The notes under the pieces are model-generated. The model was not told the origin of the DNA and ran no database searches. It saw nothing but the letters and a program-made list of their open reading frames with translations. From the NCBI GenBank assembly GCA_020619395.1, contig GCA_020619395.1_4860.1: a stretch of DNA of 64,000 nt; one strand, given 5' to 3'. Source of the DNA: a phage. Shown in pieces: positions 32,616-33,143 of this stretch. Positions within the stretch are counted from its first letter, which is position 1; the number at the start of each line of letters is the position of its first letter. The translations under genes were made by a program, and so were the position numbers.

Positions 32616-33143
32616 TTAAACGAATCCGTCCAGTTCACCGTTGGTGGTGCTCAGGTCAGTTTTAACGATTGGCTGCGTTACAGTATAAACTGCAAGGCTG
32701 GCAGGCTGGTATTTAATGTGGCCTTCTTTCACCATAACAGTGATGATTTTCTCACCACTGTCGCCGTCCTCGCGTGAAATGGTGAGTTCAGACAATGCAA
32801 ACGCATCTTCCGTTTTACCGGCGGCAATTAGATCTGCGTTGACAAAAGCAAGCACTTCTTCATCGGTATCCCATTCTGCCTGGTCAGCGGTAACTGCTTT
32901 CGCACCGATGATGTTCAATGAATCGAGGCGGGTATAATGCAGCTCTTTCTCGCCAGTAAAGTTAGCGGATTCCGCGGTGGCAGTGATGGTGAGTTTGGAG
33001 TTGCGAGTGTCTCCAGAATCTGCTGGTGAATAGTCAGCAACAGCGCCGAATGTAACGTCAGCAGAAGTTAACGGACTAGACAGTCCGCTGTTTGCAGCAT
33101 TAAACAGCGCAACGAGTTGGTCTTTTGCAGAGATGACTGCCAT
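32616..33143 (-). CDS. hypothetical protein (175 aa) with C-terminal TNGELDGF tail motif
   Basis: C-terminus KTDLSTTNGELDGFV matches the C-termini of the three family-A paralogues. Confidence 0.55.
   Translation of the reverse strand: MAVISAKDQLVALFNAANSGLSSPLTSADVTFGAVADYSPADSGDTRNSKLTITATAESANFTGEKELHYTRLDSLNIIGAKAVTADQAEWDTDEEVLAFVNADLIAAGKTEDAFALSELTISREDGDSGEKIITVMVKEGHIKYQPASLAVYTVTQPIVKTDLSTTNGELDGFV

Follow-up and report, generated by a model that had tools for sequence, protein, structure and literature searches.

Introduction

The closest described relatives of the proteins analysed here come from the phages Goslar and phiKZ, and belong to DUF7941, a chimallivirus-specific family that has been the subject of a Goslar preprint of April 2026 (bioRxiv 10.64898/2026.04.21.720040). 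[quoted passage not shown] According to AlphaFold 3 predictions for gp22, gp23 and the phiKZ pair gp126-gp127, the linker (plus CTD) of one protomer docks onto the NTD of the protomer that follows; purified gp22 forms filaments in negative-stain EM, a head-to-tail gp126-gp127 dimer of phiKZ has been fitted to unexplained baseplate density, and a baseplate-anchored host-recognition “fibre cloud” has been proposed. The evidence for docking in trans is that of an un-refereed preprint and is largely derived from AlphaFold 3 (bioRxiv 10.64898/2026.04.21.720040).

For phiKZ, at least three DUF7941 proteins are predicted (bioRxiv 10.64898/2026.04.21.720040), and the phiKZ atlas of 2026 places one gp127 in each outer peripheral “star lobe” of the baseplate, with an AlphaFold 3 model docked into a 4.4 Å map (PDB 9XQD). 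In the Salmonella phage SPN3US, the DUF7941 proteins correspond to “paralog family B”, a set of ~20 virion proteins that may, according to an earlier description, be the largest paralogue family of any phage, and that has been without a functional assignment since 2016.

Results

Four genes of an SPN3US-like phage end in the same short tail

The window, i.e. the whole stretch of 64,000 nucleotides that was analysed, comes from an SPN3US-like Salmonella jumbo phage: its bases 32000-50000 are 97.7-99.3% identical to those of Seoulvirus Salmonella jumbo phages, including SPN3US and phage 1252, and its genes are named below by the numbers of their SPN3US equivalents. Four genes, all located on the minus strand, encode proteins with the tail: the 175-aa ORF at 32616..33143 (gp160), and three paralogues that we refer to as the A proteins, at 41640..43082 (gp151), 44998..46494 (gp148) and 48451..49863 (gp145). 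Downstream of each A gene lie two further genes, “B” (~330 aa) and “C” (~300 aa), while gp160 is without cognate B and C genes; the B and C proteins carry neither the DUF7941 NTD nor the tail. Seven full-length DUF7941 proteins (gp138-144) are encoded at 49912..55989. Chaperone-like genes (31863..32534 and 34409..35050, DUF4376/DUF1353 neighbours) and two radical SAM genes are also found in the neighbourhood of gp160.

The tails themselves are encoded on the minus strand at 32619..32663 (gp160, KTDLSTTNGELDGFV), 41643..41684 (gp151, KTDLATANGELNGF), 45001..45045 (gp148, KITLGDTNGELDGFQ) and 48454..48498 (gp145, KTTLTSLNGELDGFK). A sequence-only reading of this DNA had pointed to a conserved C-terminal tail on four proteins, and the tail is indeed there: in the six-frame translation of the window, the pattern NGEL[DN]GF occurs exactly four times, each time 0-1 residues from a stop codon. 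The concern that such a motif could be common by chance in the genome can be set aside, as ~1e-4 matches are expected per window from the residue composition, and 200 shuffled windows yielded one match in total.

That the tails could have arisen by chance or at the nucleotide level, through a ribosome-binding site, a recombination block or a recent gene conversion, is suggested by nothing other than their position at the 3' ends of genes, and we regard it as practically negligible. The codons of the tail vary between copies (GAA/GAG, CTG/TTG, GGA/GGC, TTC/TTT); when the seven-codon core was compared pairwise among eight tails, taken from five phages, the codon differences were synonymous in 92 cases and non-synonymous in 27, which rules out gene conversion or DNA identity as the origin of the similarity. 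The Shine-Dalgarno sequences of the downstream genes are positioned 3' of the stop codons of the tails, so that an artefact of ribosome-binding sites or gene overlap is ruled out as well. Since synonymous differences dominate and the ribosome-binding sites lie beyond the stop codons, the similarity of the tails has been selected at the protein level; the gp160 alignment, which goes down to 46% identity, moreover shows the motif to be kept in several phage genera.

The tail is the best-conserved segment of gp160

The conserved block of the tails has 14 residues, K-[TIV]-[DNST]-L-x-x-x-[NDS]-G-[EDT]-L-x-[GDE]-F. In a comparison of 59 gp160 orthologues, with identities down to 46%, it ranks first for conservation among the 162 windows of this length. 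Within this block, L171 is invariant in the 59 orthologues, while K161, D163, L164, G169, E170 and F174 are conserved in at least 90% of them. The block is also present in 29 of 34 A-type homologues, among which the residues at block positions L4, G9, L11 and F14 do not vary; the glutamate of the motif is substituted in several homologues. The phenylalanine is followed by 0-10 variable residues in the gp160 orthologues, and the motif therefore does not depend on a free carboxylate at one particular residue.

A scan of IMG/VR with a narrow DNA pattern found C-terminal tails in SPN3US-like jumbo contigs only, the matches elsewhere being internal chance matches. Some of the SPN3US-like IMG/VR contigs carry two or three gp160-like genes in tandem.

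The tail carriers are paralogues of the DUF7941 family

The four carriers had been taken for otherwise different proteins, which they are not: the DUF7941 NTD (Pfam PF25613, gathering threshold 27 bits) is present in all four, with scores of 43.3 bits (gp160), 79.2 bits (gp151), 105.5 bits (gp148) and 110.3 bits (gp145). Out of 276 profile positions, only the 100-153 at the N-terminal end are covered by their matches. The NTD of gp160 comprises residues 1-160 (32664..33143, minus strand; PF25613 E-value 4e-11, with AlphaFold2 and hhalign in agreement), and the NTD of gp145 comprises residues 1-150 (49414..49863, minus strand), its alignment ending at profile position 147-153. The same domain is found in gp154, gp155 and gp138-144, amounting to ~13 NTD-bearing genes in the window, compared with the at least three DUF7941 proteins predicted for phiKZ. 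As the carriers are paralogues of one family, the motif that they have in common is explained by shared ancestry.

The family members of the window follow four layouts: NTD-linker-CTD in gp138-144, NTD-linker in gp160, NTD-linker-payload in gp154 and gp155, and NTD-payload-tether-linker in gp145, gp148 and gp151. On a wider scale, a profile of the NTD plus linker matched 3457 cluster representatives at E <= 1e-3, and among the best 150 of these 3457, a tail HMM scored at least 8 bits in 11 proteins, with all matches located at most seven residues from the C-terminus; by length, nine of the 11 resemble the A proteins (466-509 aa), one gp155 (735 aa) and one gp160. In other clades, short members with the NTD only have looser endings (..VTNTDMNGL.., ..TTTALDGL.. 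and ..DTVLDGFVYK).

The tail corresponds to the linker that follows the NTD

The profile of the 59 gp160 orthologues and that of the seven full-length paralogues are collinear in hhalign over positions 1-176 and 1-166 (of 283), respectively (Prob 96.9, E-value 1.3e-10). The tail is thereby placed over the segment “L..VVT.T.L.GL.YP” (profile “L..Vt...Ls.l.yP”), which is located between the N- and C-terminal halves of DUF7941, and the per-column confidence of hhalign is low across the tail. In an independent MAFFT alignment, KTDLSTTNGELDGF of gp160 is stacked under LAEVVTNTELSGLLYP of gp138, LSLVVTQTKLDGLVYP of gp141 and LVSAVTTNVLTGLKY of gp143, while a simple BLOSUM scan, in which the tail was compared with each full-length paralogue, had the internal segment as best match in only two of the seven. 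The internal counterparts of the tail are found on the minus strand at 55522..55572 in the gp138 equivalent (PLAEVVTNTELSGLLYP) and at 52919..52969 in the gp141 equivalent (RLSLVVTQTKLDGLVYP), with further counterparts at 54678..54728, 53810..53860, 51965..52015, 51112..51162, 50212..50262, 39034..39081 and 37733..37780. The motif is thus internal in gp138-144, gp154 and gp155, and its description as an intrinsically extreme C-terminal peptide does not hold; in gp154 and gp155, the linker-like segment is retained directly after the NTD.

The A proteins differ from these layouts: they align with DUF7941 up to profile position 147-153, just short of the linker, where another domain begins; the linker is missing after their NTD, and the motif is found at their C-terminus instead. 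The conserved end comprises ~33 residues, i.e. the 14-residue element and a preceding strand-like segment, and the last ~33 residues of gp145 and gp160 match each other reciprocally as PHROG profiles (E-values 6e-5 and 3e-6). The consensus of the DUF7941 linker across the family is roughly DL...VT.T.L(D/N)G(F/L). Judged from these alignments, the tail is the SPN3US-clade form of the conserved motif that follows the DUF7941 NTD.

A similar correspondence is seen with Goslar. Like Goslar gp23, gp160 consists of the DUF7941 NTD followed by the linker only, at ~175-180 aa; it is likewise encoded near a peptidoglycan-hydrolase-like gene and is likewise among the most abundant virion proteins. Goslar gp23 has 180 aa and ends in KDQLATVLADNVADGFVKPTVSVVG, its ending KDQLATVLADNVADGFV.. 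being a recognisable relative of the gp160 tail, and hhalign of the gp160 orthologues against it (Prob 89) supports homology over the first ~75 residues only. The counterparts of Goslar gp22 in the window are gp138-144, and gp154 and gp155 share the layout of the Goslar payload proteins, in which the linker directly follows the NTD. In Goslar gp86, the linker (..YNLLSLIQHLDLTGLKY.. / ..LIQHLDLTGLKY..) adjoins the NTD and the C-terminus is without the motif; in the A proteins, unlike gp86, the linker is absent after the NTD and is found at the very C-terminal end, past the payload and a tether. The motif of the SPN3US clade also differs from that of Goslar in being two residues shorter and far more sharply conserved. 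Docking linkers of the DUF7941 kind have thus already been described in 2026, and the SPN3US-clade tail is predicted to belong to that kind; the architecture of the A proteins with the displaced motif, the sharp clade-specific motif and the natural losses of the tail are new details.

Predicted structures of gp160 and gp145

The AlphaFold2 monomer of gp160, predicted from the orthologue alignment, has a pLDDT of 92, and its tail is modelled as coil with one helical turn (pLDDT 81-87), directly behind the last strand. The gp145 model is folded at residues 1-376 (pLDDT ~80-95), while residues 377-470, which comprise Pro-rich repeats and, at their end, the tail, have a pLDDT of 35-47; for the tail, such a low value is what one would anticipate if it became ordered only when bound to a partner. 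The Pro-rich repeats of gp145 (residues 377-455; 48499..48735, minus strand) form a predicted disordered tether between the payload and the tail, and equivalent tethers are located at 45046..45330 in gp148 and at 41685..41990 in gp151 (both minus strand), the predicted length of the tether in the A proteins being 80-100 residues.

In a Foldseek search of the PDB, the only significant match of the gp145 model was the NTD of phiKZ gp127 (9xqd_0; prob 1.00, E-value 1.3e-4, TM(target) 0.58), and the gp160 model had no meaningful match. PDB sequence searches with gp160 alone or gp144 alone returned no matches; the profile of the seven paralogues, by which alone phiKZ gp127 was found, matched it at an E-value of 6.6e-23. 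Phage phiKZ gp127 hence resembles the proteins of the window in matching the full-length-paralogue profile and in having a modelled NTD of 150 residues that is the fold match of gp145; it differs in that its linker is internal and followed by a CTD. Searching BFVD with the gp160 model gave 46 matches at E <= 1e-3, and those with names are jumbo-phage virion structural proteins.

These models bear on whether the tail acts within its own chain or on another. The tail could be the last fold element of the NTD, packing on its own domain without joining subunits, in which case the chain of the A proteins would loop back and the payload would be a domain insertion. Such packing in cis is possible given that the tail of gp160 is ordered in the monomer model right behind the last strand, and the order of elements, which is always NTD, variable payload and tail, would suit it too; monomer predictions, however, often fold swapped segments back in cis. 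The gp145 model leaves the tail away from the NTD, with a pLDDT of ~40 at residues 377-470, and a Pro-rich tether of 80-100 residues would be an odd way to close a fold. Natural tandem concatemers of the module, with up to 13 matched stretches, also speak against it: in these, “..VVKVTDLG” is directly continued by the first helix of the module that follows, so that the motif is set against that module, which is the arrangement expected if the linker touches the next NTD. With the AlphaFold 3 predictions of the preprint docking the linker in trans (bioRxiv 10.64898/2026.04.21.720040), we consider packing in cis rather unlikely.

Cleavage, chaperone recognition and modification

The tail had also been read as a docking, chaperone-recognition or processing signal, and among these roles docking comes closest, given the homology with the linker and the data of the preprint, while the chaperone and processing roles have found no support. 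The tails have no A-x-E motif, at which the SPN3US prohead protease gp245 cleaves; they read ..T-N-G-E-L.. or ..A-N-G-E-L.., with no alanine at P3, and all four carriers are listed as “unlikely cleaved” in Table S6 of the published proteome (PMC10052503), the family B proteins migrating at full size; a prohead-protease site in the tail is thus rejected. An intramolecular chaperone domain of the Peptidase_S74 type had no Pfam match in the carriers at E <= 0.1; fibre domains of this type are autoproteolytic and have ~100 residues or more, compared with the 14 residues of the tail element.

The nearby chaperone-like and radical SAM genes would suit recognition by a DUF4376/DUF1353 chaperone or a modification of the tail, whose E-x-x-x-F loosely resembles a known target: PqqA carries E-x-x-x-Y. 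The best family matches of the radical SAM neighbours are, however, a CXXX-repeat-target maturase and PapB, and ORFs with CXXX repeats (27168..27560 and 27571..27972) are located immediately upstream of the maturase-like genes. The tail has no cysteine, as a CXXX-repeat or ranthipeptide target of radical SAM/SPASM enzymes would have. Radical SAM modification of the tail is rejected, because the maturase-like genes have CXXX-repeat substrates of their own and because the glutamate is not invariant. Taken together with the internal position of the motif in other paralogues, these findings make a processing, chaperone or modification signal very improbable, and the tail is predicted to be a connector internal to the family, rather than a signal common to unrelated proteins.

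Natural losses of the tail

A fifth, untranslated copy of the motif is located at 36005..36034, just 3' of the stop codon of a 725-aa ORF, the gp155 equivalent: the stop is followed in frame by FNEELDGFKA* (36002..36037, minus strand), a decaying remnant of the tail, which in SPN3US proper reads FNEELDGVKA. The gp155 homologue of phage CR5 ends in ..DLSKAQDTLDGFKK, with a lysine where the window has TAA; the distal half of gp155 in the SPN3US-type phages has hence been lost to a nonsense codon. The protein is nevertheless still detected in SPN3US particles by mass spectrometry, and gp154, which is without any C-terminal tail, is also incorporated. In the Machinavirus group, one A paralogue stops cleanly ahead of the tail. 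The tail is therefore dispensable in some contexts, i.e. in gp155 and in the Machinavirus A paralogue.

Discussion

A candidate connector between DUF7941 protomers

The tail is probably a “plug” that docks in trans on the NTD, or “socket”, of the next DUF7941 protomer, giving rise to head-to-tail filaments. In such an assembly, the plug peptide of one protomer would dock onto the socket of the next, and many DUF7941 paralogues would be joined head-to-tail into flexible heteropolymeric filaments. The abundant gp160, with the NTD and the plug only, would be the bulk subunit of the filament, as Goslar gp23 may be; the A proteins would keep the socket and have the plug moved behind a lectin-like payload and the disordered tether of 80-100 residues, and they could be spliced into the chain as flexible, payload-bearing links. 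By analogy with the docking predictions and the filaments of the preprint, the tails of the SPN3US type would do what the linkers do in Goslar; unlike those of Goslar, for which anchoring at the baseplate has been proposed, the SPN3US proteins have been placed on tailless particles by mass spectrometry.

A comparable principle operates in chaperone-usher pili, where, in donor-strand complementation, a short terminal peptide of one subunit fills a site on the next, resulting in mixed head-to-tail fibres, and where subunits without a donor can only end the chain. The parallel is one of analogy only: the two systems are not related in sequence or fold, the DUF7941 proteins have no chaperone and no usher, and their proposed acceptor is a complete alpha/beta domain in the AlphaFold2 models. 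The idea that paralogues without a tail act as chain terminators is weakened by gp154 and gp155, which keep the linker-like segment after the NTD.

We put forward, only tentatively, that the plug and the socket have become uncoupled, and that the ~13 paralogues form a “programmable”, heteropolymeric host-seeking fibre cloud borne by the head or neck, with links, branch points and ends. The uncoupled A-type proteins would have a socket at one end and a plug more than 300 residues away, behind the lectin-like payload and an elastic tether; the other paralogues would have the plug beside the socket, would have lost the C-terminal plug (gp155 and one Machinavirus A protein), or would possibly have two (the CR5 gp155 homologue). 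The attachment to the head or neck, rather than to the baseplate, is suggested by the proteomes of tailless mutants.

Abundance and location in the virion

In SPN3US mass spectrometry, gp160 and gp141 rank among the virion proteins of highest abundance, which parallels what is seen for Goslar gp23 and gp22. The levels of gp138-155 and gp160 are undiminished in two different tailless SPN3US mutants, for which reason these proteins have been called head (or neck) proteins: in the part of the published data considered here, their normalised head/WT ratio in tailless particles is 1.1-1.6; the average PSM of gp160 is 583 in the wild type and 509 in tailless particles. The protein gp237 of SPN3US, by comparison, behaves as a tail protein. 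The undiminished levels conflict with an exclusive anchoring of the filaments at the baseplate.

The same data could indicate a partner of the tail outside the DUF7941 family, either on the capsid or neck, or in the B and C proteins with their FN3-like domains; these two proteins are present in the SPN3US particle though they have neither the NTD nor the tail. The presence of the family in tailless particles, a Hoc-like density without an assigned protein on each of the 260 SPN3US hexamers, and the conservation of the tail, the highest within gp160, would all agree with such a partner. Against it, gp160 has no cognate B and C genes and is, by spectral counts, apparently far more abundant than B and C; seven paralogues carry the motif internally, and incorporation is seen for gp155 despite its missing distal tail, as well as for gp154, which lacks a C-terminal one. 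A partner outside the family is, in our judgement, distinctly unlikely, and we retain docking on the NTD of another DUF7941 protomer as the probable role of the tail. We have also considered, on account of its abundance and the 260-copy density, that gp160 could be the Hoc-like protein at the hexamer centres; nothing in the analysis supports this assignment.

Read as the plug of the family, the tail is a 14-residue motif that is open to deletion or swapping and would offer a concrete functional test for family B. This reading connects the proteomics of SPN3US with the structural work on Goslar and phiKZ, and it brings out a conflict between two locations of the filaments, at the head or neck and at the baseplate. 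If the logic of plug and socket is true, it would explain how many receptor-binding payloads are mixed on one phage scaffold, and it would provide a small modular connector for phage engineering.

With regard to mass spectrometry, the C-terminal tryptic peptides of the tail carriers are TDLSTTNGELDGFV, TDLATANGELNGF, ITLGDTNGELDGFQ and TTLTSLNGELDGFK. The published coverage fractions of gp160 fit a denominator of 186 residues, not 175.

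The end of the gp155 gene and the surroundings of gp160

The product of the gene equivalent to SPN3US gp155 (36035..38212, minus strand; 725 aa) carries, besides the DUF7941 N-terminal domain, a T-even Gp38 tail-fibre adhesin domain at residues 373-553 (PF05268, E 5.7e-18); despite this adhesin domain, gp155 is present in tailless particles according to published mass spectrometry. The TAA codon that ends the gene is aligned with a lysine codon in the homologue from phage CR5, and is followed, in frame, by FNEELDGFKA and a second stop codon (gp155 stop and remnant at 36002..36037, minus strand). 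This remnant is a fossil of a C-terminal tail like the conserved NGEL(D/N)GF peptide that ends gp160 and the A proteins; it is decaying, since SPN3US itself reads FNEELDGVKA after the stop.

Directly after gp155 (35960..35995, minus strand) and directly after gp160 (32545..32580, minus strand), a G+C-rich hairpin is followed by a T run, and both structures resemble intrinsic terminators. A 217-aa ORF opens with the ATG at 35992, which is located at the foot of the former hairpin; a later gp156 start, as in the SPN3US annotation, is therefore favoured. gp160 itself is situated between two assembly-chaperone-like genes, encoding a DUF4376 protein (31863..32534, plus strand) and a DUF1353 protein (PHROG "tail assembly chaperone"; 34409..35050, minus strand), both of which are non-virion proteins in the published SPN3US tables.

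The common domain and the tethers of the A, B and C proteins

The A proteins, as well as the B and C proteins encoded after each of them (39725..49863, minus strand), have in common a domain of approximately 220 residues, which starts with (Y)P(D)(S/T)GPGP and ends with ..ELV(E/L/D). For this domain, the Foldseek matches are no more than weak, of the FGE/PvdO (C-type-lectin-like) type (prob 0.41). In the B and C proteins, which are without the DUF7941 part, the common domain is the end of the protein, and the N-termini resemble, by eye, an FN3-type domain.

In the A proteins, the disordered tethers consist of short proline-rich repeats of the form ..RPL..T(D/E).. or ..PKTVDF.PI.., with approximately six units at 41685..41990, four at 45046..45330 and two at 48499..48735 (all on the minus strand; counted by eye). 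The final unit is similar by eye to the last hairpin of gp160, and reciprocal PHROG matches agree.

DUF7941 concatemers

In proteins P0134, P0153 and P0127, the DUF7941 N-terminal module is covalently concatenated; up to 13 stretches are matched. The Lys/Asn-rich sequences in P0134 and P0153, a weak Pfam Spiralin match of gp160 (E 0.0023), and the subject of the only other paper that mentions DUF7941, a Spiroplasma genome, suggest that the module may also occur outside chimalliviruses, against the statement of the Goslar preprint (bioRxiv 10.64898/2026.04.21.720040).

A radical SAM cassette

By its predicted gene content, the region at 27168..31358 (plus strand) is a radical SAM cassette for peptide maturation that is encoded by the phage. 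It opens with two Cys-rich ORFs made of CXXX repeats (27168..27560, 130 aa, 21 Cys; 27571..27972, 133 aa, 20 Cys), each with a near-threshold match to TIGR04114; a 295-aa ORF and two radical SAM genes come after them. The top matches of the 442-aa radical SAM protein, neither of which reaches its curated cut-off, are the TIGR04115 "CXXX-repeat target family" maturase (E 3e-36) and PapB (E 1e-32). The comparison with the records of SPN3US, Wellington, Caitlin, EarlPhillipIV and CR5 covered the two radical SAM genes, which are syntenic in all five.

Numbering in the SPN3US proteomics tables

The gene numbering of the SPN3US proteomics tables should be used with caution. In the supplementary coverage table of PMC10052503, each value for gp160 (0.812-0.919) equals a whole number of residues out of 186, as opposed to the annotated 175, and the masses for gp160-162 look displaced by one row; in the 2017 SPN3US paper, the entry "gp161" stands for gp160.
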